Below, piece by piece: positions 33,586-64,000 of a stretch of DNA of 64,000 nt. Each line of letters begins with the position of its first letter. Within the stretch, counting starts at the first letter, position 1. The position numbers were made by a program, and so were the translations under genes. The notes under the pieces were generated by a model. It had not been told where the DNA came from and searched no databases. It saw only the letters and a list, made by a program, of their open reading frames with translations. The DNA is from an uncultured bacterium (lineage in GTDB: Bacteria > Acidobacteriota > Thermoanaerobaculia > Multivoradales > JAHZIX01), in the NCBI GenBank assembly GCA_965368975.1, contig CBDUPA010000012.1:83540-147539 (forward strand), in the 5' to 3' direction.

Positions 33586-33591
33586 GGCGAT

Positions 33592-34695: not shown

Positions 34696-34698
34696 ACG

Positions 34699-40362: not shown

Positions 40363-40408
40363 AGCTCGAGGCCGGTCCGAAAACAAAAGCAAAATTGCGA
40401 GGTTGAAC

Positions 40409-48330: not shown

Positions 48331-51300
48331 TGTTGCCTGGCAGGTGATCTGGCAGGCCATTGCCGGCGTCTTGGTCTGGCTCGATAGCCAGTCGCTCTAT
48401 GTGATCCTCGGCTGTGTGGGCGGCCTGCTGAGCTTTGTCTATGGTTTGGCATATGGCCTGCAATGGCGGCTCGTCAAGTTTCTCGAGCCGCGACCGGAAC
48501 AGACAGCGCCGCTGGGACGTTGGGAGGCCATGTCTTCCCTCTTGGCACCGGTGACGGTCGTATTCTTCGTGCTGGAGGGCATCACCCGCTCGCTGCATCG
48601 CCGGGTGCGAGGTTCGAAGGAACCAGACTGGAAGGTCAAGCACTCGAGTTCCGCCAAGAACCATGGCAAGCCGATCTTGATCGCGACCTTGGGGCCGACC
48701 TTTCTGCTCGCCGGTGTCTTCACTGCTGTGGTCTACTGGTTGGCCCGTCTCGGCGAGCCTCTGTTCGCCGAAGCGTTCTCTCATGCGGGTCCATATCCTT
48801 TCTGGGAGTCCAAGCTGCTCAGTGCCTTGTTGGTCCTCGAAGCTCCGCCAGACATCTTCCCGTTGGCGAGCCATCCCAAGGTATCGCTGGTCCTGAGCTT
48901 GCTCTTCTGGACAGCTCTCTGGTGGACGTGCGGCAATCTGCTGCGAGGCTTCGTCTATCGAACCGACTTGCAGCGCAACCTGGCGGGCCGCCGCGATACA
49001 GCCTTGCCGCTGTGGACCTCCTGGTTCGGGGTCAAGAAGCTGACCGAGGCCGGTGAGGCCTACCGGGGTTGGGCCGCCTGGCTGGTGACGGCGGTCATCC
49101 TGCTGACCGTCGGTGCTGGCATGACGCTGAACCCGGCTCCCGGCTCTACCACTGCCGGTGTTGTTGATGGCCTGGAGCCAGCAGTCCAGGTTTCGCCGTC
49201 CGCGCTCGCCGTCGCCTTGATCCTCGCCTTGTCTTGGGTGCTGCACCTGCACCTCAAAGGCAAGCATTTTGAGCCGGAGCCCAAGTCCCGAAGGGAAGCG
49301 ATCGTGCCGTCGGAAGGCCTGCCGGGATGGCAGCGTGTCGTGGCCAAGTTGGAGGAACGGTATCGCCTGACGCCGCCGGAGTTTCGCGGCGAGCGACCGT
49401 TGCTGGCCCCCGCGTTCACCGTACCTACAACGGCTCTCCAGGTGCTCTCGCCCCTGGTTCCTGAACTCCTGCAGGAGCCGGAGCAGAGTCCGGAAATCCG
49501 GCAGACACCGCCGCTGAACGTGATGCAGGCGAAGGTGCTCGAAAGTCTTTCGCTGTTTGGCTATGTCCACCTGCAGCCCCCCACCACCGGCGATGTCCTG
49601 GAACTTTCGAGTAGTGGTCCAGGAGCGGTCGAGGACCGTAGTGGGTTATCTGAGCGCCACCAGATCGTGCTGGCCCCCGAGGGCAGTGGCAAGACGACTC
49701 TGGCCATACTCGCCGCCGCCAACAATACCCTCGTGCATGCCCGAGCGACGCTGCTGATCACGCGGTCGGGGGAACAAGCGGACGAACTCCAGCTCAAGTT
49801 CCAGGAGGTCGTCGAGCCCTCCACGGTGCGCTGGAACCTGCGGTTTCGCCGCATGGGCCAAGACTTCGCGTCAGACCTCAGTCGCGACATCGTGCCCGAC
49901 ATCGTGATCTCGAGCCTGCACGAACTCACCACCGGCATGCTCGACAACGCGGAGGTCTATGCCGACTTCCTGCGCAACGTCGGGCTCGTGGTAGTGGACG
50001 ATGTAGAGTCCTTCGCCGGAGCCGTCGAGATTCACGCCCAGCTGGCCTTCCGCCGTCTCCGCCTGCTCTTCCGGCAAGTTTCCGAGGTCGAACAGCTCGG
50101 TGAGGCCAACGCACCGTTGATGCTGATCCTGGGCGTCGATTCGATGAAAGAAATGGCTGCCTGGGCCAAGAGTCTGTGCGGTGTCCAGGCCGTGGTGCGG
50201 AACTTTCCCGCCGCCATGGCGGAGACCGACCAGTCGAAAGACAGCGCATCAGAGGGCAGTCCATCAGGGGACAGGTCATCAGGGGACAGTACATCAGGGG
50301 ATAGAGCCTCCGAGGAGGGCGCGCGACAGCAGAAATGGCTTCCGTTCAGCGCCCTGCAAAGCCACCAGGGGCGGCAACTGACCGTGCCGGAGGTCGTCGC
50401 CGCCTGTGAAGCCGCTGGCGTGCCCTGGTGCTATCGACCCTGCGGTGACGGTCGTCGGCATCGAGGCCGTGGTCCGCTACTCCTGGAGCAGGAGCCCGAG
50501 CACGCCACGGCATCGCCACGGGATGCCTGTGTGATCTTCTTGGATGGTCGATGGAGCGAGGTACGCAGAGAGCTGCAGCGGAGTCCGTGGGCCGGGTACC
50601 AATCGAGACGGCAAGAGGTCATCTTCCTCGTCCTGGTCGATCCCGAGGAGGCGCTGGCCTGCGGCGAACTCGACCCGGACCTGGGTTTCGAGGCCTCGCA
50701 CGATCACGTGCGTCCAGACTTGGCGGAGGAACTCGTGACCTTGCCGCTGCCGGTCGTGCGCCCGCCATCGAGCCACGTCTTGCAGTCTCACCTGCTCTCC
50801 GATCTCGTGCAGAGTTGGTTCGAAGTCAAGGACCTGGTGGATACCTTCGAAGTCCCCGTGGCGCATCGTCTACGCTATTTGCAGTCGCAGGGCATGTTGC
50901 TGATGGAGGAGCGAAGCGACGTCCAGGCCGCACTGAAGGAGTACGAAGCCAAAGTTTACGTACGTGCCCTTGCAGCCTCCCTGGCCATCGACGAGGCCGG
51001 AGGCAGCGCCAACGACGGCATCATCGAGTATCCGCCCCTGGACAAGGTGCGACAAGTCGAGCTGGTGGCCAGGTCGGCGGTGACGATCCGCAATCGAGCC
51101 GATCACACGCTGCTGCGCACGGTCGAGGCCGATAGCGCGGCCTGGATCTACTACCCGGGGCGCATCTTCGAGGACTCTCGCGGCCGCTTCGTCGTGGTCG
51201 GCCGAGTCCGTCGAGGAGATCGACTGGGTGCCATCGAGGTCGAGCCCGTATTGCACGACAACTTTTCCAGTCCACGGCGTTGGTTCGAGCGCATCGAGCC

Positions 51301-52258
51301 GGAGACCTCGAGCCGAGAGAAACTCTCCGTCGCCGCCGACTCCGACTCGTCGGCGCACTGCGAGGCGCACGGCTATGCTCTGTATGAAAAGGAACCGGTT
51401 CTGCTGGGGCGGCACAGCATCGAACTCGGCCTGGTCGCGATCGAACTGAAGCTACATTCGTTGGCGGTCTTCCGACTCGACAGGTCGACCTTCGAGGTGC
51501 GCGCGCGGGAGATTCACGCGCAGCGAGCGCAGAGCGAGTTTCCGCCGGCAGAACTGCAGACAATCGCGGTCTCGTTGCACCCCAATCCCCAGGAATCGAG
51601 CCCATCTGCTCCGAAGCTGCACCTGGCGGCAGCGCGCTTGCTCACCGCGCTGTTGCGCTTTGTGCTGCCGCTGATCTATCGCAACGTCCAGGATCGCTTG
51701 GAGGTCGCGTTGATCTTCCCGGGGGAGGACGGCGACAAGAGGTTCACAGCACCGTGGGATTCGGAGCTGGAGTCCGAGGCGGCCCTCTACCTCTTCGACC
51801 TGCACCAGGGGGGAGATGGCACTGCGCGGGCTCTGTACCGGGATGGCGTCGAGCTACCGCTGCGCTTCTGCCGACACTTCCTGGCCACGGACGTGGACGT
51901 GGAGCGGATCTTCCGGCTCCATGGGCACGAGAGTAGCTTGCAGGAGGTCAAGGTAACCCATGGAGGTCCCGAGGCGGTTGGGAACGATGCTGAGCCAGAG
52001 GACGAGATACTGGAAGCGTGGCCTTGGCAAGAGATCCGTGCTGGGTTGCTGGCCTGGTTGGATAGTCGTCTTCATCCGGAGTCCGTCTCCTGGGCCGAGG
52101 CCGAAGCGTCGGCTGCTGAGGAGGTTACGGAGGATACTGAACTAGAGGCAGAAGACCTGGAGGCAAGTGCCCCGGGCGATCACGCACAGACCGCTGAAAG
52201 TTCCACCGTCGAAGAAGCCACCGCCGAAGAGTCCACTGCTGAGACGGAAGAGGCTTGA
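48311..52258 (+). CDS. 1315-aa polytopic membrane protein (about 7 TM) fused to an SF2-helicase-like P-loop ATPase and an acidic C-terminus
   Basis: N-terminal TM helices; Walker A LAPEGSGKTT; Walker B VVVDDVESF; 20-nt overlap with the upstream gene. Confidence 0.55.
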   Translation: MDPTWIDVAWQVIWQAIAGVLVWLDSQSLYVILGCVGGLLSFVYGLAYGLQWRLVKFLEPRPEQTAPLGRWEAMSSLLAPVTVVFFVLEGITRSLHRRVRGSKEPDWKVKHSSSAKNHGKPILIATLGPTFLLAGVFTAVVYWLARLGEPLFAEAFSHAGPYPFWESKLLSALLVLEAPPDIFPLASHPKVSLVLSLLFWTALWWTCGNLLRGFVYRTDLQRNLAGRRDTALPLWTSWFGVKKLTEAGEAYRGWAAWLVTAVILLTVGAGMTLNPAPGSTTAGVVDGLEPAVQVSPSALAVALILALSWVLHLHLKGKHFEPEPKSRREAIVPSEGLPGWQRVVAKLEERYRLTPPEFRGERPLLAPAFTVPTTALQVLSPLVPELLQEPEQSPEIRQTPPLNVMQAKVLESLSLFGYVHLQPPTTGDVLELSSSGPGAVEDRSGLSERHQIVLAPEGSGKTTLAILAAANNTLVHARATLLITRSGEQADELQLKFQEVVEPSTVRWNLRFRRMGQDFASDLSRDIVPDIVISSLHELTTGMLDNAEVYADFLRNVGLVVVDDVESFAGAVEIHAQLAFRRLRLLFRQVSEVEQLGEANAPLMLILGVDSMKEMAAWAKSLCGVQAVVRNFPAAMAETDQSKDSASEGSPSGDRSSGDSTSGDRASEEGARQQKWLPFSALQSHQGRQLTVPEVVAACEAAGVPWCYRPCGDGRRHRGRGPLLLEQEPEHATASPRDACVIFLDGRWSEVRRELQRSPWAGYQSRRQEVIFLVLVDPEEALACGELDPDLGFEASHDHVRPDLAEELVTLPLPVVRPPSSHVLQSHLLSDLVQSWFEVKDLVDTFEVPVAHRLRYLQSQGMLLMEERSDVQAALKEYEAKVYVRALAASLAIDEAGGSANDGIIEYPPLDKVRQVELVARSAVTIRNRADHTLLRTVEADSAAWIYYPGRIFEDSRGRFVVVGRVRRGDRLGAIEVEPVLHDNFSSPRRWFERIEPETSSREKLSVAADSDSSAHCEAHGYALYEKEPVLLGRHSIELGLVAIELKLHSLAVFRLDRSTFEVRAREIHAQRAQSEFPPAELQTIAVSLHPNPQESSPSAPKLHLAAARLLTALLRFVLPLIYRNVQDRLEVALIFPGEDGDKRFTAPWDSELESEAALYLFDLHQGGDGTARALYRDGVELPLRFCRHFLATDVDVERIFRLHGHESSLQEVKVTHGGPEAVGNDAEPEDEILEAWPWQEIRAGLLAWLDSRLHPESVSWAEAEASAAEEVTEDTELEAEDLEASAPGDHAQTAESSTVEEATAEESTAETEEA

Positions 52259-52262
52259 AGAG

Positions 52263-53084
52263 TCAAGAATGCGGACGCAAGTGGAACTCGTTCAAAGAGT
52301 AGTTCGCAATCGGAACCTCGAGGTAATCGTTTTCGTACAAGTGTTTGCGTAGGAGTCTTGAGAGTGCTTCTGGCGAGTCGATGTTGATCTTCTCCAAGAC
52401 AGCGACGAGCATTACATTCCTTTGTTCCCGTGTTTTATCGGCACCTTTTCTTGAGCAGTCGGGATCCTTAAAGCGCCCGAGGTTTACGGAATACAGTTTC
52501 CTGCCGCCAGACAGGTCGGCAATGGTGCGTACCCAAGAGATCAGCTGGTCCGCTCTGGAGCGCGCGCGCTCTTCTTCCAGATGGTGGATGGCCGCGATCT
52601 CACAGGAGGCCATGCCAATGGCAATAATGTCGGTGGCCTGTTCAACACTCGCTTGTAGTCCGGTAGAATTCAGGAACGCAAAGACATCTGCTTCTTTATT
52701 TCCAGCATTCATGATGACATCAGCCCGCCCGATGGGCCAGTAGTGTTCGCGGTCCAGAATGGCGATGTCCATCCAAACTTCCTCACCATTGGGGCCGTTC
52801 GCCTGGACGCGTCTTGTGTCCGTTCCCTCAGTAGGAAGATGTCCTGGTTCAAAACAAGGAGAGGGACAGGGACGTGGAAGCTCAGGGCCGTCGATATCGG
52901 GAGGATCATCGCTGCCAACATCGTTATCTAGAAGATCATTGATAACCACTGGAGGGTCTTGGGGTCCGGCTGCAAACTGGCTGCTGTACTTTTCTAGGTA
53001 AGGCTCGACTGTTACAGACAGGACCAGTGAGAAGAAGGCGCTTACAGAGGCCCATAATAGATCCTTCTTTGTAAAGAAACTCAT
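52263..53084 (-). CDS. hypothetical membrane-anchored protein in a lower-GC islet
   Basis: N-terminal TM/signal LLWASVSAFFSLVLSVTV; local GC visibly lower (~50%) than the flanks. Confidence 0.35.
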   Translation of the reverse strand: MSFFTKKDLLWASVSAFFSLVLSVTVEPYLEKYSSQFAAGPQDPPVVINDLLDNDVGSDDPPDIDGPELPRPCPSPCFEPGHLPTEGTDTRRVQANGPNGEEVWMDIAILDREHYWPIGRADVIMNAGNKEADVFAFLNSTGLQASVEQATDIIAIGMASCEIAAIHHLEEERARSRADQLISWVRTIADLSGGRKLYSVNLGRFKDPDCSRKGADKTREQRNVMLVAVLEKINIDSPEALSRLLRKHLYENDYLEVPIANYSLNEFHLRPHS

Positions 53085-53094
53085 TATCTGATTC

Positions 53095-53649
53095 CTATGA
53101 AATGACGGTGATAAGTCCAACCAGTAGGCCACCAACACCGACGAACAAGCTGGCAGAGGAAATCCATTTTTCACGCTTGCGCTGTGCAGATTGCTCTTGC
53201 ATCTGTTGTTTTAGATGCTGTGTTAGGGGCTGCAAGAGATGGTTATTGCTCGGCAGATTCTCGTCCAGACGTTTGAGGTGTAATTGAATGTCTTTGGGCA
53301 ATCCTTGAAACGGCTCTTCTGACTCCAGCTGTTTTAGGAAATCTTCGATTCTGTCTAGGAAGGTCGAAGGAGTCTCATCCATCTCACCTGTGATCACTCT
53401 GCTGAGAAGACTCTCGAGGGAGTGCTTGAGGCCGACGGTATTAACGTCATGTGTCCGGGCAAGGCTTCGAACTCGAGACCAGGTCACATCTTCGTGACTC
53501 AATGCTTTGGTGAGATCTTCTCTGAAGTTTGCCAACTCTTTGGGGCGTTCGTTGCGTTCCTTCACTTCTGAGAGAAAAGCGACCATACCAACAGAACTGC
53601 CGATAGCAGTCCCGAGCAAGACGAGAATTAGGATATAGGTAATTTCCAT
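53095..53649 (-). CDS. hypothetical small membrane protein (N- and C-terminal TM helices) in a lower-GC islet
   Basis: ITYILILVLLGTAIGSSVGMVAFL and LFVGVGGLLVGLITVIS hydrophobic ends; 10-nt gap to the downstream gene. Confidence 0.35.
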   Translation of the reverse strand: MEITYILILVLLGTAIGSSVGMVAFLSEVKERNERPKELANFREDLTKALSHEDVTWSRVRSLARTHDVNTVGLKHSLESLLSRVITGEMDETPSTFLDRIEDFLKQLESEEPFQGLPKDIQLHLKRLDENLPSNNHLLQPLTQHLKQQMQEQSAQRKREKWISSASLFVGVGGLLVGLITVIS

Positions 53650-53801: not shown

Positions 53802-55967
53802 TCAAACCCGCGACGCCACCCACTCGCTGATCCTCCCGTGCGCAGTCACCAGCGCCGACTTGCGGGCACGCGTCAGCGCGACGTAGAGGAGGGCGCGTTC
53901 CATGAGTTCGGTTTCGCGCTGGATGGCTCGGTCTTTGGAGTAGCGCACGCGGGTGCGCCAGGGCATGTTGTCGTCGCTCAGGCCGGCGACGATCATGTGG
54001 TCGTACTCTAGGCCTTTGACGCGGTGCATGGTGGCGACGCGTAGGCCGGGTTTGTCGGCGTCGTCGCTGGTGTCGCGGCCCAGACGCAGGGTGGGGACGC
54101 CTCGGTCTTCTAGGGCTTCGGCGTAGCGGTCGGCGAGGGCGTTGGTGCGGGCGACGAGGCAGGCGTGGGTGGTCTCGCGGTCGGTGAGCCATTGGGCGAT
54201 GGCTTCGACTTCGTCGTCGAAGGTGGGTAGTTCGAGGGTTTGGGGGACCGCGCCGTGGGTGAGGGAGCGGTAGCCTTGACGCGAGTCGGCGGTGCCGTCG
54301 AGGTCGTCGAATTCTTGGTTCTCGAGCACGGCGACGGCGTAGCGGCGGATTTCGTCGGTGGTGCGGTAGTTGATGCGCAGGCGGCGGCCGCGACCGCGGA
54401 TGTTGACGCCAGCGTGGGAGAGCACGACGCGCTTACGGTAGATGCGCTGGTGGCCATCGCCGACCAGGAAGAGGTCGTCCGGCTTTTCGGGGACGGCGGC
54501 GCGCAGCAGGCGGAAGGCGTTGGTGCTCATGTCTTGCGCTTCGTCGACGACGATGGAGCGTAGCGCCAGCTGTACGCGGCCGGCTTCGAGCAGCACGCAG
54601 GCGTCGAGCAGGGCGTCTTCGGGTTCGCGCAGGCCGTGCTTGTCGAGCTGGTGGCGGTATTCTTCGAATACCGGCCAGATCGCCTTGCGCTGGGCGCGAC
54701 TGAGGCGCTCACCGCGACCGGCGCGGCTGGCTCGCTTGTAGTCTTTCCAGCTCTGGCAGCCTTGCGCCTGCACCACGGCTTCCCACTCGTCGCGGTAGAA
54801 GGACTCGGAGACTTCGAGGTGGGTTGCGGGATCGGATGCGCTGCTGGGCGCCAGCGTGAGGGCGGAGTCCCAGGAGTCCTTCAGCGGGCCACGGCTCGGA
54901 TCCCAGTACTTGATCCGGTATTCGTAGCCGGCGCGCAGCAGCAGGTCACGCACCCATTTGTCGATGTTGACGACATCGATGCGTCGCAGCGCTTCGGGTG
55001 GGCACAGGCGCGCCAGGTTGGCGCGGATGTCGTTGGCCAGGTTCTTGGTGAAGGTGGTGAAGAGGATGCGATCGCCGGGGGCGACGAAGACGTTCTGCGC
55101 CAGGTAGGCGGCGCGATGCATGGCGACGACGGTCTTGCCGGTACCGGCGCCGCCGAGCACGCGCACGGGACCGTTCCAGCTACGCTCGACCAGTTTGCGC
55201 TGGCTCGGGTGCAGGAAGGTGCGCCACTTTTCGAGCGGCGCGTCGAGCATCGCCTGCAGGCTGGCGTCGTCCTCGACGACCACGAAACGCCGCTTGGTGG
55301 CGTCGCGTTCGAGGGCGCGGTCGATGTCCGAGGTGTCGATGTCGGGCTCGGCGGACACCGCCATGGCCTGTTCGACTTCTTCCAGCGACTCGCCCTCGCT
55401 GAGCCAGTAGAGGGCTTCGAAAGCCTCGGGCGGCAGCTGCGCGGAAAGGGCCTCCAGTTCGTGGGCCCTGCGCAGCGCGCGCACCTCGTCGAGCTGGGGC
55501 TCGGGGACGCCGAGGCGCAGGAGTTCGCGGTCGCGGATGGCGTCGAAGAGGCGCGTTTCGACGGTGCCGGCACTTGCTGCCGGCGTCTCTGCCCCGTCCC
55601 GGGGCGACGCCGTCGCTTGGCGGCTGAAGACCTGCAGGGCGCCGGTTTCCGGGTGCACCGAGACGCTCTTGTGCTCGGCCCAGCGCATGGCTTTGTCGTG
55701 GTGGTCGATCCACAACAGCAGGTAGGTGTTGCCCTTCTCGGGCTGACGTACGATGGCTCGGTACTCCAGGTCGATGCGCACGGTGCGTAGACGCGGATCG
55801 GAGAAGGTGCTGATGGGCTCGTAGTTGATGCTGGACTGCGTGGGGTCCTGACGGAATTTGCGCAGGAACTTGCTCACCTTCTTCTGCTGTGCGCGCGGGA
55901 TGAGCGCGAAGGCATCGAAGAATTCCTCGTAGATCGCGACTTTGAAGGTTTGCTCGTAGGCCATCAC
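53802..55967 (-). CDS. UvrD/REP-family (SF1) helicase with N-terminal RelE/ParE-like domain
   Basis: Walker A VLGGAGTGKTVVAMHRAAYL; SF1 motifs; N-terminal 100 aa follow a RelE/ParE pattern (...RTVRIDLEYRAIVRQPEKGNTYLLLWIDHHDKAMRW); GTGATGA overlap with the upstream giant gene. Confidence 0.75.
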   Translation of the reverse strand: MMAYEQTFKVAIYEEFFDAFALIPRAQQKKVSKFLRKFRQDPTQSSINYEPISTFSDPRLRTVRIDLEYRAIVRQPEKGNTYLLLWIDHHDKAMRWAEHKSVSVHPETGALQVFSRQATASPRDGAETPAASAGTVETRLFDAIRDRELLRLGVPEPQLDEVRALRRAHELEALSAQLPPEAFEALYWLSEGESLEEVEQAMAVSAEPDIDTSDIDRALERDATKRRFVVVEDDASLQAMLDAPLEKWRTFLHPSQRKLVERSWNGPVRVLGGAGTGKTVVAMHRAAYLAQNVFVAPGDRILFTTFTKNLANDIRANLARLCPPEALRRIDVVNIDKWVRDLLLRAGYEYRIKYWDPSRGPLKDSWDSALTLAPSSASDPATHLEVSESFYRDEWEAVVQAQGCQSWKDYKRASRAGRGERLSRAQRKAIWPVFEEYRHQLDKHGLREPEDALLDACVLLEAGRVQLALRSIVVDEAQDMSTNAFRLLRAAVPEKPDDLFLVGDGHQRIYRKRVVLSHAGVNIRGRGRRLRINYRTTDEIRRYAVAVLENQEFDDLDGTADSRQGYRSLTHGAVPQTLELPTFDDEVEAIAQWLTDRETTHACLVARTNALADRYAEALEDRGVPTLRLGRDTSDDADKPGLRVATMHRVKGLEYDHMIVAGLSDDNMPWRTRVRYSKDRAIQRETELMERALLYVALTRARKSALVTAHGRISEWVASRV

Positions 55968-58900
55968 TCAGTCTCCTCTGCTAGCGCCTCTGCTAGTACC
56001 TCGGCCAGCGGCGAGACGTCGACCGTCCCGTCGGGCTCGAGCGCCAGGTCTTCCAGGTAGAAAAGTCTCCAGTCCGCCGCCGGCTCGCCGACGGCCCAGG
56101 CGCTGTCGGCGTACGAGGTGAGCGCGACGCGCGCGGTGTGCCACACCAGTTCGGCCTCGCTCCACACGGTATCGCGCTGGTTCGGTATGTCGTCACCGAC
56201 CACCGGCTCCACGATGCCCGCGGCGATCATGGCCTCGGCGGCGCCTCGGTAGGCGTCCTCGATCTCGTCGAGCTGTGTCCAGATTGCATCCTCGCCTTCC
56301 GGGCCGTGCTCGGCGAGGCTGCGCAGCTGAGCGATGCCGCTGTAGTCGCCGACGTCCGATGTGGTGACGAAGACGATGTCGTCGATCGCGCGCAGCCACT
56401 GGAAGAGACGCAGGAAGCCACGCCACGCCCGGTGCATCTGCGGCAGTTCGCGCCGATCTTCGCGGTCGTCGAGTTCGCGGTCGTCGAGGCGGGCGAGCAC
56501 GGTCACTCGCTGACCATCGTGGGCGGCCATCCACTCGATCTGCCGCGGCTCGCCCCAGGTGCCGCTGGCGAGGGCGCGGGGCCTCGTCGCGGCGAGCTGG
56601 TCGCGTAGGGCTTCCGGTGCCGCTTGCCGCGCGAACTCGGTCCAGGCGCGTTGCTGACTCGGCAGCGTGGCTTCGAGTCGAGGTACCAGCGCCGCCGCCG
56701 CCAGGTCGCGCCACGGCAAGCCGTTGGCATCTTGGAGGTCCTGCAAGAGCCAGCGGAAGGTCGACTGTTGCGGCAGGTCGGTGAACTGGGTGAGGCCCAG
56801 CTGCTGGAGAGCCTTCTTGAAGTCACCCAGGTCGAGCGCCGCCAGTTCGGGCGCGGGCTCGACCTCGGTGGATCTCGTCAGCTCGGCTTCCAGATCGTCC
56901 CAGGTGAAGGTCCACACGTCCCAGCCCGCGGCCAGCAGTGCCTGGCGCTGGCGCAGGTCCTGCCCCAAGCGATCTTGGTGGAACTGCCAGCCGTCGAGGA
57001 AGATGGCCAGACGACGATCGGTGGCGGCGCTGGCCGGTCGCAGCACGAAGTCGATCGAGACGCCGATGCCGCCGGTCTCGGCCCTCGGCGGTTCGACCTG
57101 CGGCTCGATACGCCATTGGGCGTCGCCCAGCGTCCACAGCCAAGCATCTTTGATGCCGATCGGGATCCGCTTCAGCTGGGCTGGGTGCTGTTCGTTGCCG
57201 GCGCGTAGTAGGGCTTCGAGGAAGCGGGCTTCGAGGGCACTGTCGAGCAGGCCGGAGTGGCTGATGTCGCCCAGGCGTTCGATTTCCTGCACGCTGTCGG
57301 CGCGCGCCAGGATGCGGCGCAGGATCTCGGAGGCCGTGCGCGCCGAGGTGTCGCGCATCTCGCGACTGTTGCGGTAGCCGAAGAGGCAGCGATAGCAGCC
57401 TTCCACCAGCTTGCCGGCTCGGTTCGTGGTGCCCCAGCAGGCGCAGCCCTCGATCCGTTGCAGGCTCGCCTCGAGAGCTCGGAACAGGGGTATCGTGGCA
57501 TCGGCATCGGGCGTGACCAGCTGTTTCAGAAAGCCGGTGCCGCCGGGCACGGAGTCGAAGAGCACCAGGTACTGGCGGCGCAGCGTGCTGTCGGGAGTCG
57601 GTTCGGAGTAGACGGTGGTGCGCAGGTGGTCGACGCTGCCGGCGAAGTAGCTCTCCAGCCCCAGCTGCAGGGCGGCGGTGAACGAGTTGAGCTGGCGCGT
57701 GCCGGCGAAGTCGGTGATCGGCAGCAGCAGGCGCAGGGCCTCGGACTCGAGCTGGCGGTAGAGATAGACGCAGGACTCGATCTGCTCGTCCGTGTCCTTG
57801 CGTCGCGACGGGCAGGACAGCAGGTGGTCGGTCTTCTCACCCTTGCGCGTCGCCTGCACCTTGCCGCAGCGTGCGCACAGCTCGAAACCCTGGCGCACCA
57901 TGGCTCGGCCGGCGATGGTGTTGCGCGCGCCCAGGTCGGAGGGTTCGCCGAAGTTGATGTCGCGAAAGGTCACCCGTGCGCAGTACTCGAAGCCGAAGGG
58001 GTGACGGTCGTCGTCCAGCCGCCAGGCGCGCGAGGAACTGCGAGTGTCGAAGGTGGGCAGGATGTCGCGCTCGAAGAAGCGCGGCTGGCGTTCGTCGCGA
58101 TCGTCGCGAATCCGGGAGTTGCGGTCGGATTCTCTGGCGAATACTTGCTCCAGCTTCAGCAGGCGCTGGGTCTGGCCGCTGTCGCGCCAGTCGGCGGCGC
58201 CGCAAACCGGGCAGGCCGTGTGCGCATCGCCGGTGTCGATCGACTCGGCGTGGCTGCACTCGGGGCAGAAGCGCCAGGTCTCGAGCTTGGAGGACGAGAG
58301 ATCGACGGCGTCGATGCCCACGCGTCGTCCCGAAGCGTAGAACTCGGCGCCAGGCGCCAGCTCGGCCAGGGCGCTCGACGGCGAGCGCTTGTACTCGTAG
58401 GTCCAGGTTTCGTAAGGACTCCCCTGGGCTGGAGGGTGCTTCTTGCGCCGCCAGATCACCGAGCGCAGTCGCACCGCCGACTCCGGGAAGGCGTAGTTGG
58501 GCAGCAGGCCCTGGTCGGTGAGGAATTCGAGCGTCGAGCGCTGGTTGATCGCCTTGATCAGGCCGATCAGGGCCTCTTTCTCGGCTTCGCGCTCGTCGAT
58601 CTGCTCCTGGTGGTCCTTGTCGCGGGCCTCGGTGGCGCGTAGCACTTTGAGTTGCTTGCGCAGGGTCTCTACGTTGGCGCGGTGTGCTTCGCGCTGCTTG
58701 CGTTCCTTGTGCAGGGTGTCGAGCAGGCGGCTTTCGAGGGTCGCCTCGATGTGGTGCAGGGCATCTCGAGCTTGCGCCTTCTCGGGCTGCTCGCTGTCGA
58801 GTTCAGCTTTGGCCTCCGCGCCGAGCAGGAAGCGCTCCAGGTGGGCGGCGGTGGGCGGTCCGATCTCGTCCTCGAACATCTCGAGGAATTCTCGCAGCAG

Positions 58901-61900
58901 GCGCGGACGCTCCTGCTTCACGAAGGCGAGCAGGTTGCTCGGGAACCGCTCGACGTCCGGCTGGTTGCCTTGGTTGAGCACGCTGCGCAGCTGCGGCGGT
59001 AACTCGGCACGGTCACCCTCGACGCCGACCCAGCGATCGATGCAGAAGGCGGTGAGCTGGCGTTCGAGCACGGCTCCGGTGTCGAGAAAGACACCGGGCG
59101 GCGGCACGTCACCGGCGATCATCTCGTGCGGCTGGGCGAAGAAGTAGAGGTCGTGCGGCTTCGCCGCGGCGACGGTGAGCACGAAGGCGTTGCCATCGCG
59201 CCGGCCGGCGCGGCCGATGCGCTGCAGGTAGCTGGCCTGGCCGGGTGGTACCGAGCACAGGATGGCGCTCGACAGGTCGCCGATGTCGATGCCCATCTCC
59301 AGCGTCGGCGTGCAAGAGAGCAGGTTCGGGTACCACGGCCGCCGCGCCTCGGGATCGTCCAGCTCCGGCGACGGTTCGAATGCTTTGAACTCGATCTCGA
59401 TGCGCTCGCGCTCGGCGCGCTCCAGCAGGCCGGTATGCTCCTGGGCAAAGATGCGCTGCAGGTGACCGCTGCGGTAGAGATGGCCGAAGTAGTCGTGTGC
59501 CGGCGCGGCGTCCGGACGGTAGACGCCGGCACAGCCCGTGCGCAGGCAGGGTACGCCGTGCCAGCGTTCGGCCAGCGCGCGGCTGGCGTGGGTGCGGTGA
59601 CCGCAGACGTGGCAAGCCAAGGCTGCACTGTGCGGGCTGATGACCAGCGCTTCTTCGCGCAGACCCCAGATCTGCTCACCCTTGGATGCACTGCGCTCGT
59701 CGAGCAGGCCGACTCGCACCAGCGCGCTCAGCACCACCGGGTACAGCGAGCCGGCGTCGGCGACCAGGCCGGGGCCACCCAGGAAGCAGGCATCGGCCCA
59801 GCGTGCATACCAGGATTCCCCGCCCCGTCCGGTGCGGCTCCAGGTGTCGAAGCGACGGCCGGTGCGGTCGGTCAGGAAGCTGGGCAGGCGCGAGCTGCTC
59901 TTGTAGCCGGGCAACGCCGGTTGCCGGGAGAAGGCATGGACATCCTTGCCGCAGCTCTCGATATAGGCGCCCGGCAGGCTGCGTGCCAGGATGCCGCCGC
60001 GCAGGCGCAGGTGTTGTAGCAGTCCGAGCACGAACGCCTCGACGCGCCGCGCTTCGACCTGGCGCAGGCCGGGCACCTCGTTGCGCACCACCTCCACCAA
60101 GGCCGCCACCGCGGTCTCTACATCGCCCGGCCGCAGGTCGGCGACGGCGCAGCCGGTGCGGGTCAGTGAGCGGCCGATCTCCGCCTGCAGCGAGAACTCG
60201 GTCAGCACCTCGAAGGCCAGGCGCTGGTCGATGAGGTCCGGCAGGTCGGAGGCGCGCGGTAGCTCGCCGTCGCGACGCAAGGCGTCCCAATCGTGCAGCC
60301 AGGCCATGTTGGGCGCCAGGAAGGTGGCGACGAAGGTCGCCTCGTCGTGCGCCTGCCGAGCCCACGGGCCGAGCCCGTCGGCCAGCTCGCGCAGCGTGGT
60401 TTCGCCCAGGGGCTCGAGCGCTTGCAGCATCGCGATGCGCAGGTTGGTACGCCAGGTGCGAGCGGCAAAGAAGCCGGCCCGGTGCGCCGCGTCTTGCACG
60501 CTGTCGGAGAAGGTGAGCAGCTTCTTGTCGTCGTTGAAGCGCGAGGCGAAGAGCTGGTCGATGTGCACGCTGGTCAGCGTGGCGGCGCGGAAGCCGACGA
60601 TGGCCAGGCTCTCGCGTGCGCGGCAGAAGGGGCAGTCGCGCACCAGGGCTTGCCGGCTGGCGGTGGACTGAGCTTCGAAGATTTCGATCACCCGCAGCGT
60701 CTCGTCGGCGTGCTCCGCGTCGACCTTGATCAGGTTCTTCACGTCGAGCTCGAAGGCGCTGTGCTGGAGCCGGTCGTCGGCGGGCCAGGCGTTGGCGGGG
60801 AACAGGAAGCGTACGCGGCTGCTGCGCCCGAAGTAGGCGTCGTAGAAGCGCCGCGGCAGGCAGCGATAGAGGTACGGCCGATCGCGTTCCACCACAGTGC
60901 CCCAGCCCAGGGCGCCGCATTCGCGGCAGTGGATCATCGGCAGGTGGCGGTCTTGCTCCTCCTCGTCGAGGTCGTCGGAGTGCCGCAGGTGCGGCTGCGG
61001 TCCAACGTTGGCGACCAGGCGTCGCAGCTCGCGTTGCCACAGCTGCACGCGCACCTCCAGCAGCGGCGCCGCCGGTCTCGGTCGCCCCTCGGCGCGCCGC
61101 CGCTCGGCCACTTCGGGCAACTCGTGACGCCAGGCGCGAGCCTCGGAGACCAGGCCCAGCAGGCTGAGCACGGCGAGGCGGGCGAACTGGGCGTCCCGGT
61201 GCCAAGCGTCGCGCCTGCGCCGCATCTCGTGCACGGCGTCGTCCAGCGTCGTGGCCTGGCCATCGAGGGCGCGCAGCAGGTCGTGGAAGGCGGCATGGTG
61301 GCGCAACTGCCGCCCCAACTCGACGCTGCGCTCGAACGATTCAGGCCCAGTGAGTTCGCCCTCACCGTCGGCGCCGATCGTCGCCGCTACGTCTGCCGGG
61401 AACCACAGGGCGAGCTGCGCCGCCAGCCAGGCGTGCGGGTCCGGGGCCTGCGCCGCGTCGAGTCGCTCCAGGTCTTCAGCGTCCGGTTCCTCGGTGTAGC
61501 GGATCTCGCAGCCGTGCAAGAACTGCTCCACACTCTGCCGCGTCTCGCCGATGATGGCGTCGGCGTCGAAGGGTTCGCCGAAGACCTTACGCGCATAGTC
61601 CCGCAGCTGTTCTCGCGCCGCCTCGCCGCCCAGCGTGGCGCTGGTGCCGATGCAGGCCAGCGAGCCGTCGTCCACGTCGAGACGCCGCTTGAGGCGTCGC
61701 AGCAGGCAGGCCAGGTCGGTGCCCTGGGCGCCGTCGAAGGTGTGGATCTCGTCGACCACCAGGAAGCGCAGCGTGCCCTTCACGTTGTGCTGCCAGATGC
61801 GCTGATCGCGTGGACGCAGCAGCAGGTAGTCGAGCATCTTGTAGTTGGTGAGCAGGATGTCCGGCGGCGCTTCTTGCAGGGTGGCGCGATCGGTGATCAC

Positions 61901-62461
61901 GTGGTCCGCCCCCATGCGCGTCTCGCCGTGTGCCGACCCACGACGCTTGCCCTTGCCACCGCTACCCCCGTCCCCCACGTAGAGCCCCGCCGTCACGCGG
62001 CCGCGCAGCTTGTGGTTGTCATAGATCCGCCGCGCGATGCGCGCCGCCTGGTCGCTGGCCAGCGCGTTCATGGGGTAGATCAAGATCGCCTTGACGCCCG
62101 GCTCGTGCGCCGTCTGCAGGCAGTGGTCGAGAATCGGAAGCAGGAAGCTCTCGGTCTTGCCGGAGCCGGTGCCGGTGGCCAGCAGGGTGCTCTGCTTGCG
62201 TCGACCGCCGAGGCGGGCGAACACTTGTTCCTGGTGGTGATGGGGAGGAAACCCGAGCGGTACGTCGGGGAAGACGTCTGGGGTCTCGCCGCTCAGGAAG
62301 GGCATCTTGACGGAGAGGTAGGGCCCCTTGAACAGCATGCCGTCGTCCGCGAGCAGGTGTTCGACGACGTTCTCCATGCCCGGCGTGGAGGACCAGAAGG
62401 AGAAGCGCAGGAAGTCTTGCAAGCCCTGTTCGAGCTGGCGGTGGATGGCGGAGGGGATCAA
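55964..62461 (-). CDS. Druantia DruE-like giant helicase: SF2 DEAD/DEAH helicase + DUF1998-type zinc module + C-terminal DUF559/Vsr-like endonuclease-fold domain
   Basis: Walker A ATGTGSGKTES; DEIH box FLVVDEIHTF; motif VI QRIGRAGRR; CPECSH...CPVCG and CARCG...C zinc pairs; C-terminal IDFVL...IFLDGWQFH...GWDVWTFTWDDL; 2165 aa; TTG start overlapping the upstream stop. Confidence 0.7.
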   Translation of the reverse strand: MIPSAIHRQLEQGLQDFLRFSFWSSTPGMENVVEHLLADDGMLFKGPYLSVKMPFLSGETPDVFPDVPLGFPPHHHQEQVFARLGGRRKQSTLLATGTGSGKTESFLLPILDHCLQTAHEPGVKAILIYPMNALASDQAARIARRIYDNHKLRGRVTAGLYVGDGGSGGKGKRRGSAHGETRMGADHVITDRATLQEAPPDILLTNYKMLDYLLLRPRDQRIWQHNVKGTLRFLVVDEIHTFDGAQGTDLACLLRRLKRRLDVDDGSLACIGTSATLGGEAAREQLRDYARKVFGEPFDADAIIGETRQSVEQFLHGCEIRYTEEPDAEDLERLDAAQAPDPHAWLAAQLALWFPADVAATIGADGEGELTGPESFERSVELGRQLRHHAAFHDLLRALDGQATTLDDAVHEMRRRRDAWHRDAQFARLAVLSLLGLVSEARAWRHELPEVAERRRAEGRPRPAAPLLEVRVQLWQRELRRLVANVGPQPHLRHSDDLDEEEQDRHLPMIHCRECGALGWGTVVERDRPYLYRCLPRRFYDAYFGRSSRVRFLFPANAWPADDRLQHSAFELDVKNLIKVDAEHADETLRVIEIFEAQSTASRQALVRDCPFCRARESLAIVGFRAATLTSVHIDQLFASRFNDDKKLLTFSDSVQDAAHRAGFFAARTWRTNLRIAMLQALEPLGETTLRELADGLGPWARQAHDEATFVATFLAPNMAWLHDWDALRRDGELPRASDLPDLIDQRLAFEVLTEFSLQAEIGRSLTRTGCAVADLRPGDVETAVAALVEVVRNEVPGLRQVEARRVEAFVLGLLQHLRLRGGILARSLPGAYIESCGKDVHAFSRQPALPGYKSSSRLPSFLTDRTGRRFDTWSRTGRGGESWYARWADACFLGGPGLVADAGSLYPVVLSALVRVGLLDERSASKGEQIWGLREEALVISPHSAALACHVCGHRTHASRALAERWHGVPCLRTGCAGVYRPDAAPAHDYFGHLYRSGHLQRIFAQEHTGLLERAERERIEIEFKAFEPSPELDDPEARRPWYPNLLSCTPTLEMGIDIGDLSSAILCSVPPGQASYLQRIGRAGRRDGNAFVLTVAAAKPHDLYFFAQPHEMIAGDVPPPGVFLDTGAVLERQLTAFCIDRWVGVEGDRAELPPQLRSVLNQGNQPDVERFPSNLLAFVKQERPRLLREFLEMFEDEIGPPTAAHLERFLLGAEAKAELDSEQPEKAQARDALHHIEATLESRLLDTLHKERKQREAHRANVETLRKQLKVLRATEARDKDHQEQIDEREAEKEALIGLIKAINQRSTLEFLTDQGLLPNYAFPESAVRLRSVIWRRKKHPPAQGSPYETWTYEYKRSPSSALAELAPGAEFYASGRRVGIDAVDLSSSKLETWRFCPECSHAESIDTGDAHTACPVCGAADWRDSGQTQRLLKLEQVFARESDRNSRIRDDRDERQPRFFERDILPTFDTRSSSRAWRLDDDRHPFGFEYCARVTFRDINFGEPSDLGARNTIAGRAMVRQGFELCARCGKVQATRKGEKTDHLLSCPSRRKDTDEQIESCVYLYRQLESEALRLLLPITDFAGTRQLNSFTAALQLGLESYFAGSVDHLRTTVYSEPTPDSTLRRQYLVLFDSVPGGTGFLKQLVTPDADATIPLFRALEASLQRIEGCACWGTTNRAGKLVEGCYRCLFGYRNSREMRDTSARTASEILRRILARADSVQEIERLGDISHSGLLDSALEARFLEALLRAGNEQHPAQLKRIPIGIKDAWLWTLGDAQWRIEPQVEPPRAETGGIGVSIDFVLRPASAATDRRLAIFLDGWQFHQDRLGQDLRQRQALLAAGWDVWTFTWDDLEAELTRSTEVEPAPELAALDLGDFKKALQQLGLTQFTDLPQQSTFRWLLQDLQDANGLPWRDLAAAALVPRLEATLPSQQRAWTEFARQAAPEALRDQLAATRPRALASGTWGEPRQIEWMAAHDGQRVTVLARLDDRELDDREDRRELPQMHRAWRGFLRLFQWLRAIDDIVFVTTSDVGDYSGIAQLRSLAEHGPEGEDAIWTQLDEIEDAYRGAAEAMIAAGIVEPVVGDDIPNQRDTVWSEAELVWHTARVALTSYADSAWAVGEPAADWRLFYLEDLALEPDGTVDVSPLAEVLAEALAEETE

Positions 62462-64000
62462 GCGCGGTCCTTCCCGTCAGCGAGCGGACGGCCTTGTTCG
62501 GCGAATCTTTTGGTGAAATGTTCCCAGGCGACCGCGTAGTCCTTCTCGCGGTCGCAGCGCACCCACGGCGCCTGGTACACGATCGTCTTCTCGCGCGGGC
62601 CGCCGGGCAGAGTGTCGTCCATCACGACCTGGGTCACGGTCTCGTTGCCGGTGTAGCCGGCTTCTTCGGACATGTGTTGGACGTCGTTCCAGCAGGGGTT
62701 CGGATCTTTCTTGCTGGTGGTGCGGTTCAGGCCGACACCCACCAGGCCGCGCGAGTTGGTGAAGACGATGCGGCCGTTGCGGTCGTACCAGGTGTCGGCT
62801 TCGTAGGAGCGCAGGACGGGGAATTGGACGCGGTAGATGGTCTGGAGTTGTTCGAGGGTGAGGCCGAGGGCCATGGAGATCAGGACGTCGATTTCTACCA
62901 GCACGGCGCGGCGGGCGGCGTCGGGGCGGATGGCGGAGTCGCGGGTCCAAGACTGGTCGCTCGATGCGAAGGGCTGTTCCAGGAATTGAGAGAGGAAAGG
63001 TGTCGCTTCTGTACTCCACTCCCGCCTGGATCGGCGATTCCAGAGATCTGCGAAGTGGGTGGTGAGGCAAACGAGGCTACAGACTCGGGCGACGAGAGCT
63101 TCCTGGATCTTGGACTCGGGGATGATCGGTAGGCGCCGCGCCAGGTTTGGTCGGAAGTCTCCAGAGCCGCTCGATTTGATCAGGAAGTCAATCGGTAAAG
63201 ACATCCACGTCCCAGCTACAGCTACAGCCTGAGTCTCATTCGAAAAACAATAACTGTAGACACCGTCGATGTGCGCTGTGCCTGGTGGTGAGATGGCCGG
63301 TTGCAGTGTGCGCTCACTTGTCGGGCCCAGACCTCTGTTCACCACGAGTCGAAAGTAGTCCAGTACCGCGTTCGGGGCATCATCCGAGGCCCAAGGGACT
63401 TTGGGCGATCGCGTCCGATAGTCTGAGGGCTCGGCATTGGGCAGATAGATCGAGCGCGGCAGATAGTCTTCTGGTAGCTCCGTCAGGTCCAGTACGTCAT
63501 AGCAGCTGTTGTTCGTGACCTCTGCGCGCGGAGTCTTGTAGAACGGATTACCGACGTGGAAGTGCGGTCCGGAAATAATCCATTCGTGTACATCTTGCGG
63601 GAACCTCACCTCCTTTCGGATGGTTCCATCCCGCTGAGACCGGGACTCGTGCCACATTTCTGCCGACTTGTAGCAGTCTGCCGGCAGATCGCCCAGTTTC
63701 AATGGACTGACAGCGAACGCTTCGAGCGCCTGAAGCAAGGTCGCAGAATGGAGCGCCGGAAGCTTGGCCTCCGTTGCCGGAGTGTCCGGTTCGTCATAGA
63801 GACGAGCAAAGAGTTCCAGCTCCGTCTCCGTGATGCGCAGAATCCGATCACGATGACCGCGCGTCTCCCAGCTGTTCTCGTCGTCCTTGATCCCGGGCAC
63901 CGGGCCGTAGCCATCGTGGGCATGACACTCGTCGATGGTTGCGGGGACGAAGAGATTTGCCAGGTGCGTGAAGTCCGGAGTGCTTCTTTGGGCTCCATAG
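62458..64000 (-). CDS. large hypothetical protein, 5'-truncated by the window edge (frame stays open to position 64000); possible DruH-like partner
   Basis: ORF-track 480-aa ORF begins at an internal GTG; upstream codons (...FVPATIDECHAHDGYGPV) continue without a stop to the window end; 4-nt overlap with the DruE-like gene. Confidence 0.5.
   Translation of the reverse strand, partial: YGAQRSTPDFTHLANLFVPATIDECHAHDGYGPVPGIKDDENSWETRGHRDRILRITETELELFARLYDEPDTPATEAKLPALHSATLLQALEAFAVSPLKLGDLPADCYKSAEMWHESRSQRDGTIRKEVRFPQDVHEWIISGPHFHVGNPFYKTPRAEVTNNSCYDVLDLTELPEDYLPRSIYLPNAEPSDYRTRSPKVPWASDDAPNAVLDYFRLVVNRGLGPTSERTLQPAISPPGTAHIDGVYSYCFSNETQAVAVAGTWMSLPIDFLIKSSGSGDFRPNLARRLPIIPESKIQEALVARVCSLVCLTTHFADLWNRRSRREWSTEATPFLSQFLEQPFASSDQSWTRDSAIRPDAARRAVLVEIDVLISMALGLTLEQLQTIYRVQFPVLRSYEADTWYDRNGRIVFTNSRGLVGVGLNRTTSKKDPNPCWNDVQHMSEEAGYTGNETVTQVVMDDTLPGGPREKTIVYQAPWVRCDREKDYAVAWEHFTKRFAEQGRPLADGKDRA

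Follow-up and report, generated by a model that had tools for sequence, protein, structure and literature searches.

The 3' portion of a very probable ARMADA type II anti-phage operon, with divergent ArmB, ArmC and ArmD

The window analysed here is a 64,000-nucleotide stretch of DNA from an uncultured bacterium, and positions 53802 to 64000 carry three minus-strand open reading frames, lying where the original prediction had placed them (Table 1). Read in the direction of transcription, they are the final third of armB, a complete armC and a complete armD, and all three have the GC3 > GC1 > GC2 pattern of coding DNA. The armB frame (62458 to 63999) stays open as far as the edge and is, as predicted, 5'-truncated by the window. 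Stop and start codons overlap at both junctions. At armB/armC (cgcgcTTGAtc) the overlap is TTGA, with TTG as the armC start; armC/armD reads gaGTGATGGcc, with either a GTGA overlap (GTG start) or a one-base overlap in TGATG (ATG start, as in database protein P0121). Of the overlaps first proposed, TTGA is as given, and the letters cited as GTGATGA are actually GTGATGG. No tRNA or Rfam family was found anywhere in the window, so an integration site was not identified; no integrase was seen in the window, and terminator-like sites 3' of armD were no more than expected by chance.

Table 1. Genes and predicted domains of the locus (window coordinates; residue numbers refer to the gene product)
Feature	Coordinates	Strand	Description
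armB 3' fragment	62458..64000	-	Last 513 codons; N6-adenine methyltransferase, PglX/type IIG-like, about 1580-1640 aa whole
armC	55964..62461	-	YprA-family DExH helicase-nuclease, 2165 aa, TTG start
armC RecA1 lobe	61562..62248	-	About residues 72-300; Walker A GSGKT (K102), DExH box VVDEIH (D237/E238/H240)
armC RecA2 lobe core	59042..59464	-	About residues 1000-1140; motif VI QRIGRAGR at 1080
armC MZB/DUF1998 zinc-binding domain	57383..57679	-	Residues 1595-1693; C1673, C1675, C1689, C1692; PF09369 above gathering score
armC nuclease domain (predicted)	56867..57253	-	About residues 1737-1865; Vsr/DUF559-like PD-(D/E)xK
armC C-terminal tail	55967..56854	-	About residues 1870-2165; a further pair of alpha/beta domains, well folded (AF2 pLDDT mostly above 90)
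armD	53802..55967	-	GajB-like UvrD/SF1 helicase with a RelE-fold domain fused at its N-terminus
armD RelE/YoeB-fold domain	55620..55964	-	About residues 1-115 (ATG numbering); AF2 pLDDT 90.6
armD UvrD-type SF1 helicase core	53820..55217	-	About residues 250-715; Walker A GTGKT (K277), Walker B VVDEAQD (D474)

ArmC is identical in sequence and length to its database copy (P0001). Its description as a giant protein with SF2 helicase motifs and DUF1998 holds: GSGKT, VVDEIH and QRIGRAGR were located, and Pfam matched DEAD (2.1e-19, residues 76-280), Helicase_C (3e-07, residues 1045-1088) and MZB/DUF1998 (PF09369, 8.3e-11). The RecA1 motif residues are invariant in 25 homologues. An insert of ~700 aa with conserved CxxC pairs (C512/C515, C610/C613 and C950/C953) parts RecA1 from RecA2, an architecture that agrees with the ARMADA description (PMC12458937). 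Two Cys-pair modules with invariant cysteines (C1399/C1402/C1417/C1420 and C1529/C1532/H1546/C1550) lie N-terminal of the MZB domain, whose cysteines are likewise invariant. Pfam and pairwise scores place the protein, with its DExH core and DUF1998/MZB, among the YprA-family helicases and there in the ArmC clade.

The C-terminal DUF559/Vsr-like nuclease fold of the original prediction, which quoted IDFVL, FLDGWQFH and GWDVWTFTWDDL (all present in the protein), agrees with an invariant core, sub-threshold Pfam matches and a weak structural match. The invariant residues are D1804, D1823, G1824, H1828, D1835, R1839, W1850, W1854 and D1856, of which the first six are kept in 25-51 homologues, E. 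coli ArmC included. The isolated domain matched MTES_1575 (1.3e-05) and DUF559 (0.017), both under the gathering score, and MTES_1575 also matched 11 of 24 homologues. An AF2 model (pLDDT 90.7) had the TnsA endonuclease as its best PDB fold match (Foldseek, E 4.6e-3, prob 0.94); a PDB profile search gave no sequence match. From conserved residues and the model, we propose with moderate confidence that ArmC carries a Vsr-type nuclease domain with its catalytic residues retained. The tail domains weakly resemble EEP folds (Foldseek with a three-domain model: ExoIII, E 1.1; TDP2, E 1.2) and showed no relation to the nuclease domain when the three C-terminal domains were compared with hhalign. Their E. 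coli counterpart has been described as inactivated EEP plus Vsr domains; in ARMADA type II, such domains after the active nuclease are frequent but not invariable.

ArmD is 720 aa long if read from the ATG at 55964 (identical to P0121); starting at the GTG (55967) would make it 721 aa. The predicted UvrD-like helicase downstream of the giant protein was recovered by Pfam (UvrD-helicase, 1.1e-24; UvrD_C, 2.6e-18; AAA_19, 5e-14), and the best PADLOC label was GajB (3e-27). The model of its N-terminal domain, with invariant residues Y48, E49, R63, R69, H89, D90 and W95, matched RelE (2khe, 1wmi), YoeB and YafQ at the top of the Foldseek PDB search (prob 1.00, TM 0.69-0.78 on target), and 20 of 39 homologues matched Pfam ParE_like and 13 matched Gp49. 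ArmD therefore resembles RelE/YoeB toxins in its N-terminal fold and Gabija GajB in its core; it differs from the former in being fused to a helicase and having no antitoxin gene, and from the latter in having no GajA partner.

The upstream reading frame had been thought to lack recognisable domains, like DruH. No Pfam match or similarity to DruH was found; nonetheless, it aligned with the PADLOC model REase_MTase_IIG (PDLC03614, 1.3e-79, profile positions 1110-1577 of 1584) and with residues 1120-1639 of E. coli Sakai ArmB, ECs_5262 (44% identity, E 5e-132). This C-terminus places a PglX-like methyltransferase directly upstream of armC, as in ARMADA type II. The SAM-binding/NPPW motif residues of E. 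coli ArmB, G605 and N971, are upstream of the aligned region, and the part of armB with the catalytic NPPW region falls past the window edge. The first two thirds of armB, and armA, should lie just past base 64000. Exact-protein look-ups with ArmC and ArmD led to no contig, and metagenome contigs do not contain a 38-mer taken from the edge of the window (exact match).

Work of 2025-2026 introduced ARMADA as an anti-phage system and tested it in E. coli, with type II loci in O157:H7 NCTC 12900, EDL933 (z5899-z5902) and Sakai (ECs_5261-5264) (PMC12458937, PMC13463889). We used the Sakai locus (L003), its identity taken from PMC13463889, as a reference. In E. coli, the four genes jointly give direct, non-abortive protection against many phages; this needs every one of the genes, an ATPase motif in each of ArmA, ArmC and ArmD, and the ArmB NPPW motif (PMC12458937, PMC13463889). 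Over essentially the full aligned length, identity to the Sakai proteins was 36% for ArmC (1244 bits), 44% for ArmB and 49% for ArmD (from residue 6 on). Gene order in the visible part (armB-armC-armD) is the same, as are the domains of ArmC (DExH helicase, several zinc modules and MZB, then a Vsr-like nuclease in the C-terminal part with extra domains after it) and of ArmD (RelE-fold domain, then GajB-like UvrD helicase). Residues mutated in E. coli are kept, with ArmC K110/D234 and ArmD K266/D454 corresponding to K102/D237 and K277/D474 here. The locus differs from that of E. coli in its limited identity, its high G+C content and non-enterobacterial host, and in having no Druantia III or Zorya II adjoining it.

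On the homology of its products to validated E. coli proteins, their domain content, the coupled junctions and the conserved neighbourhood, we regard the region, with high confidence, as the 3' portion of a four-gene anti-phage operon (armA-armB-armC-armD) of ARMADA type II. The fused nuclease and the extra SF1 helicase had been taken as marks of an unusual Druantia variant; the Vsr-like nuclease on ArmC and the SF1 helicase gene both belong to the architecture that defines ARMADA type II (Bell et al. 2025, PMC12458937). ArmD agrees with the type in its UvrD domains, GajB match, 49% identity, RelE/YoeB fold and overlap with armC. The locus adds one more case to a system already known and is no unusual variant of Druantia.

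Gene neighbourhoods were compared in a sample of 80 related genome loci, which does not include the source locus. Directly 3' of armC, armD was found in 60 of 68 assessable loci; 40 of the 52 assessable for armB had it upstream in the same orientation, and armA (SNF2) was upstream in most loci having enough flank. The order SNF2, methyltransferase, ArmC, ArmD was seen in Magnetococcus MC-1 and in the closest relative (ArmC 62% identical), with methyltransferases of 1579 and 1631 aa. A tubulin-like operon adjoins the locus described here; across the 80 related loci it showed no co-occurrence with ARMADA.

An alternative is that the locus is what remains of a decayed or incomplete ARMADA, with armB truncated and armA missing, and no longer has a defence function, or that armC and armD work without the methyltransferase. 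A protein-database search with the ArmB fragment gave a best match of 65% identity, and the source ArmB was absent while ArmC and ArmD of the same contig were present; its gene may therefore be interrupted by the end of a contig or labelled a pseudogene. Among the related loci, 12 of 52 had no armB within 8-10 kb upstream of armC. Against this alternative, which we regard as unlikely, the visible armB is an uninterrupted frame with a coding GC pattern that stays similar to E. coli ArmB to its end, it is translationally coupled to armC, and ArmC and ArmD keep all catalytic motifs.

The original prediction had read the giant protein as DruE of a Druantia type III-like system, with a DruH-like upstream partner and an added SF1 helicase. 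The DruE-like, YprA-family helicase in a defence operon stands; the Druantia system does not. PADLOC does give DruE models as best on the protein (DruE1, 3.6e-99; DruE3, 1.6e-91), DUF1998 is present, and ArmC is the closest sister of DruE (PMC12458937). However, the DruE of the same E. coli island scored 114 bits, with helicase motifs alone aligned, against 1244 bits for ArmC, and no PLD domain matched, the nuclease being Vsr-like. The PADLOC check suggested with the prediction returned REase_MTase_IIG and GajB for the partners and no Druantia partner: DruA-D, DruM/F/G, DruH and DruF/DruL were all missing next to the helicase, whose neighbours are ArmB and ArmD, and DruH was found in 0 of 80 related loci. 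The signature gene of Druantia types I-IV is lacking; the protein that the DruE HMMs match is an ArmC orthologue. We consider the Druantia reading very improbable. A PADLOC label of Druantia type IV was likewise rejected, type IV being DruE+DruF+DruL (PMC8565338).

Equally improbable is a class 1 DISARM variant with DrmA and DrmB fused and DrmC replaced. Upstream genes of relatives match DrmD (the SNF2 gene, 3.5e-105) and DrmMI (3e-53), and helicase plus DUF1998 is a combination common to DrmAB; yet DrmA models scored 1.6e-15 on ArmC against 1e-99 for DruE models, NCBIfam DISARM_DrmAL reached 18 bits against a cutoff of 999, helicase and DUF1998 sit in one 2165-aa frame with no PLD DrmC, and armC is followed by armD, a helicase foreign to DISARM, rather than by a PLD gene. 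Class 1 DISARM (DrmD, DrmMI, DrmA, DrmB, DrmC) shares with ARMADA type II a SNF2 helicase and a large adenine methyltransferase (both seen in the relatives) and a YprA-type helicase with DUF1998; it differs in splitting helicase and DUF1998 between two genes, in having its nuclease as a PLD protein of its own and in lacking a UvrD/RelE protein.

The labels DruE, REase_MTase_IIG and GajB were best because PADLOC 2.0.0, a 2023 release, is older than ARMADA. NCBIfam holds no ARMADA-specific model, and all its matches to the locus were far under cutoff. Tools from before late 2025 (PADLOC 2.0.0, Pfam, NCBIfam) call ARMADA genes DruE, type IIG restriction-modification enzyme and GajB/UvrD, and such labels invite false calls of a novel Druantia variant.

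There is no published account of the biochemical mechanism of ARMADA. For the ARMADA type II operon proposed here, ArmB, as a PglX/DrmMI-like adenine methyltransferase, may mark or read a DNA motif and so supply self/non-self information, as in BREX and DISARM. ArmA (SNF2) and ArmC, a YprA-type DExH translocase with five zinc modules, would load on phage DNA, probably, to judge from the related DruE, where single strand meets duplex in replication intermediates. ArmC would cut the DNA through its C-terminal Vsr-like nuclease (D1804, D1823, H1828), with ArmD as a putative second, UvrD-type motor whose RelE/YoeB-fold domain, keeping the YoeB-like catalytic positions E49, R69 and H89, may cut RNA or act as a sensor. 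Druantia type III DruE is a helicase-nuclease activated at forked DNA (bioRxiv 10.64898/2026.05.13.724313, 10.64898/2026.05.12.722862), and ArmC probably acts on ssDNA/dsDNA junctions in a similar way, judging from their shared features: the two are sister clades of the YprA helicase lineage, and both are large DExH helicases that carry zinc-module insertions, DUF1998 and, C-terminally, a nuclease. They differ in that DruE has PLD-type nuclease domains and a DruH exonuclease partner, whereas ARMADA here has a Vsr-like nuclease and, as partners, a methyltransferase and two further helicases.

As a divergent, high-G+C ARMADA representative (36-49% identity to the E. coli proteins), this copy may help structural and biochemical work on the system. 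ArmC D1804, D1823 and H1828 and the ArmD RelE-fold residues E49, R69 and H89, invariant across this distance, are targets for mutagenesis.

The gap between armB and armC in ARMADA type II could be a conserved "cargo slot" for unrelated defence systems, with this locus as an empty-slot form, a reading that we put forward tentatively. The main text of the founding paper (PMC12458937) describes a strict gene order and does not mention genes between armB and armC. Unrelated genes (1-5.4 kb) part armB from armC in 20 of 52 related loci; they are mostly co-oriented and mutually non-homologous. Among the 10 largest of these inserts, 9 matched defence models, namely, Dsr2, PsyrT, Septu PtuA, GmrSD-like, PDC-S06, PDC-S39, PDC-S68, an ABC-ATPase and a pAgo-associated Schlafen-like protein.

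The three minus-strand ORFs in 53802-64000, each carrying the signature of high-G+C coding sequence (GC3 > GC1 > GC2), are armB (3′ fragment), armC, and armD of a new, divergent representative of a known and validated system, ARMADA type II. This type was defined by Bell et al. 2025 (PMC12458937), with ArmA as a BrxHII-like SNF2 helicase, ArmB as a PglX-like methyltransferase, and ArmC as a YprA-like helicase carrying an active Vsr-type nuclease in its C-terminal part, after which inactivated EEP and Vsr domains often follow. In Escherichia coli, it protects against 13 of 80 phages, requires all four genes as well as the ATPase and NPPW motifs, and acts directly and nonabortively (PMC12458937); a second study confirmed ARMADA defense for genes z5899-z5902 of EHEC EDL933 (PMC13463889). 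Every type II feature testable within the window was present.

Features of the window, with positions and strand
Feature	Position	Strand	Remarks
Housekeeping genes	1-33 kb		TGT, SecD, SecF, HPPK, LolA
Split LanB-type lanthipeptide/thiopeptide dehydratase pair	33586-37464	+	Lant_dehydr_C 3e-33, then Lant_dehydr_N 1.5e-46
Three overlapping large genes	40268-52258	+	Convergent on ARMADA operon
Tubulin-like gene	in 40268-52258	+	1336 aa; N-terminal Tubulin_2 (PF13809) GTPase domain, 9.5e-41
Second large gene	in 40268-52258	+	1351 aa; sole match weak, PADLOC LeoBC (dynamin-like), 3.8e-05
Third large gene	in 40268-52258	+	1315 aa; DEAD-type ATPase core, N-terminal hydrophobic stretch
Two small ORFs directly downstream of armD	52263-53649	-	184 aa (N-terminal hydrophobic helix); ~269-303 aa
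ARMADA operon part	from 53.8 kb
armD	53802-55967	-	721 aa from GTG; 720 aa from adjacent ATG (database form, P0121)
armC	55964-62461	-	2165 aa, TTG start; identical database protein of equal length (P0001)
armB fragment	62458 to window edge	-

The genes overlap at both junctions (armB/armC, cgcgcTTGAtc; armC/armD, gaGTGATGGcc) and are therefore translationally coupled. The original prediction had the first overlap right (TTGA) and the second wrong by one letter (GTGATGA for GTGATGG); the protein motifs it quoted were all found in the sequence.

ArmC matched DEAD (2e-19), Helicase_C, and MZB/DUF1998 (8e-11, above threshold) in Pfam, with a sub-threshold match to REase_MTES_1575. Its top PADLOC labels were DruE models (3.6e-99, versus 1.6e-15 for DrmA), and the locus had been read as a Druantia-like trio; the three ORFs and the joining of helicase with DUF1998 held, and the Druantia identity did not. 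In direct comparison with the E. coli Sakai island (L003), ArmC aligned over its full length with the ArmC encoded there (36% identity, 1244 bits); its match to the DruE from that island scored 114 bits and did not extend beyond the helicase motifs. Druantia was rejected, as Druantia partner genes and a PLD nuclease were absent and ArmC is not DruE; PADLOC’s “Druantia type IV” (DruE, DruF, and DruL) is not applicable. DISARM was likewise rejected, with helicase and DUF1998 fused and DrmC absent.

A protein database search returned hundreds of full-length ArmC relatives (~2100 aa, 40-66% identity, 99-100% coverage), and so the nuclease tail belongs to the whole family and is no local addition. 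The fused nuclease and the SF1 helicase, once taken as marks of an unusual variant, are both hallmarks of the ARMADA family. Residues 1700-2165 were modelled as three alpha/beta domains (pLDDT 90.7), with TnsA endonuclease as the top PDB fold match (E 4.6e-3, whole model). The first domain, searched in isolation, matched MTES_1575 (1.3e-05) and DUF559 (0.017), both below the gathering score, and D1804, D1823, G1824, H1828, D1835, and R1839 are invariant in the homologue alignment; fold matching and profile-profile comparison assigned no family to the other two domains. Conserved cysteine pairs (512/515, 610/613, 950/953) and larger sets (1399/1402/1417/1420, 1529/1532/1546[H]/1550, 1673/1675/1689/1692) agree in sequence with the zinc-binding modules that type II ArmC proteins have been described as carrying, including both inserts in the OB region.

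The armB fragment stays open, free of in-frame stops, as far as base 63999 and is therefore cut by the window edge; armA and the catalytic part of armB would lie beyond it. Its product had no Pfam match and matched the PADLOC type IIG methyltransferase model (1e-79) at profile positions 1110-1577 of 1584 only, making it the C-terminal third of a ~1580-aa protein. It was 44% identical to residues 1120-1639 of 1644 of Sakai ArmB (E 5e-132). Set against DruH, to which it had been likened, it showed no significant similarity. A protein database search with the fragment gave nothing above 65% identity, though that database contains ArmC and ArmD from this contig, which hints that the source armB is cut by the contig end or lacks protein annotation.

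ArmD is a UvrD-family helicase (Pfam; top PADLOC labels, GajB and NERD+UvrD) with 49% identity to E. coli ArmD in an alignment beginning at residue 6. An AlphaFold2 model of its N-terminal 240 residues (pLDDT 90.6) had RelE, archaeal RelE, YoeB, and YafQ as top PDB matches (prob 1.00; TM 0.69-0.78 on target; rmsd 2.5-3.9 Å), and homologue N-termini matched Pfam ParE_like (20/39) and Gp49 (13/39). Y48, E49, R63, R69, H89, D90, and W95 are invariant (n = 43 homologues). E49 aligned to the position taken as catalytic E46 of E. coli YoeB; R69 and H89 presumably pair with YoeB R65 and H83 (aligned by eye only). This RelE/YoeB-fold domain looks catalytically competent.

All four genes were seen together in relatives. 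In Magnetococcus marinus MC-1 (L001), the order is a BrxR-like regulator, an SNF2 helicase (954 aa; PADLOC DrmD, 3.5e-105), a methyltransferase (1579 aa; REase_MTase_IIG, 1.5e-267; Pfam Eco57I and N6_Mtase), the 2099-aa ArmC homologue, and a UvrD helicase of 712 aa. The closest relative (L084; 62% identity) shares the four genes from the SNF2 to the UvrD helicase, then has an integrase. The MC-1 regulator is of the BrxR/WYL type (L001:1412-2308) and the integrase of the tyrosine type (L084:18638-20185); the window shows neither.

Scanning species-representative genomes turned up 80 related loci spread over many phyla, none with a DruH homologue. armD lies directly 3′ of armC in 60 of the 68 loci with enough downstream sequence. 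In the 52 loci whose upstream sequence extends for 8 kb or more, armB directly adjoins armC in 20 and lies 1-5.4 kb away in a further 20. The other 12 (L007, L017, L019, L031, L055, L059, L063, L064, L073, L077, L079, and L082) showed no armB on the armC strand within 8-10 kb upstream; they may have larger insertions or a rearranged operon, or may consist of armC and armD only. L059 carries armB on the opposite strand, L007 has an armA-like gene downstream, and in L031, armD lies 7.5 kb downstream of armC.

The armB-armC interval of 20 of the 52 assessable loci (L005, L012, L018, L021, L024, L025, L030, L037, L038, L042, L043, L046, L050, L052, L057, L061, L067, L070, L072, and L075) is taken up by 1-5.4 kb of genes that are mostly co-oriented and unrelated to one another (e.g., L021:6056-9994, L018:4972-10004, and L050:6217-9971). 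Of the 10 largest proteins encoded in the inserts, nine have matches among defense models: Dsr2 (7.7e-208), PsyrT (4.5e-287), PDC-S68 (E 0), PDC-S06 (1.2e-265), PDC-S39 (4.5e-144), Septu PtuA (2.3e-94), a GmrSD-like protein, an ABC-ATPase, and a Schlafen-like protein. The interval resembles an internal cargo slot of the operon; the main text of the founding paper makes no mention of such inserts (PMC12458937), and the window’s own locus has none.

Judged from protein anatomy, ArmB would provide motif-specific methylation or recognition, as in PglX and DrmMI, ArmA and ArmC would be DNA motors, with the Vsr-like domain of ArmC as the DNA-cutting effector, and ArmD would supply an SF1 motor and the RelE/YoeB-fold domain. 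Cutting would probably occur at single-strand/duplex junctions, by analogy with the sister protein DruE, which has been shown to act there.

Elsewhere in the 64-kb window, no tRNA gene was found, and the LanB-type pair separates the housekeeping block from the variable region. The three large genes had no PADLOC system or NCBIfam match and no co-occurrence with ARMADA across the 80 related loci; they are possibly an undescribed island-borne system. A weak terminator-like hairpin (53724-53705) lies between armD and the two small ORFs, such sites being no more frequent than chance. These ORFs had no family matches and, with a G+C of 0.48-0.51 versus 0.62-0.69 in the flanks, were probably acquired recently.
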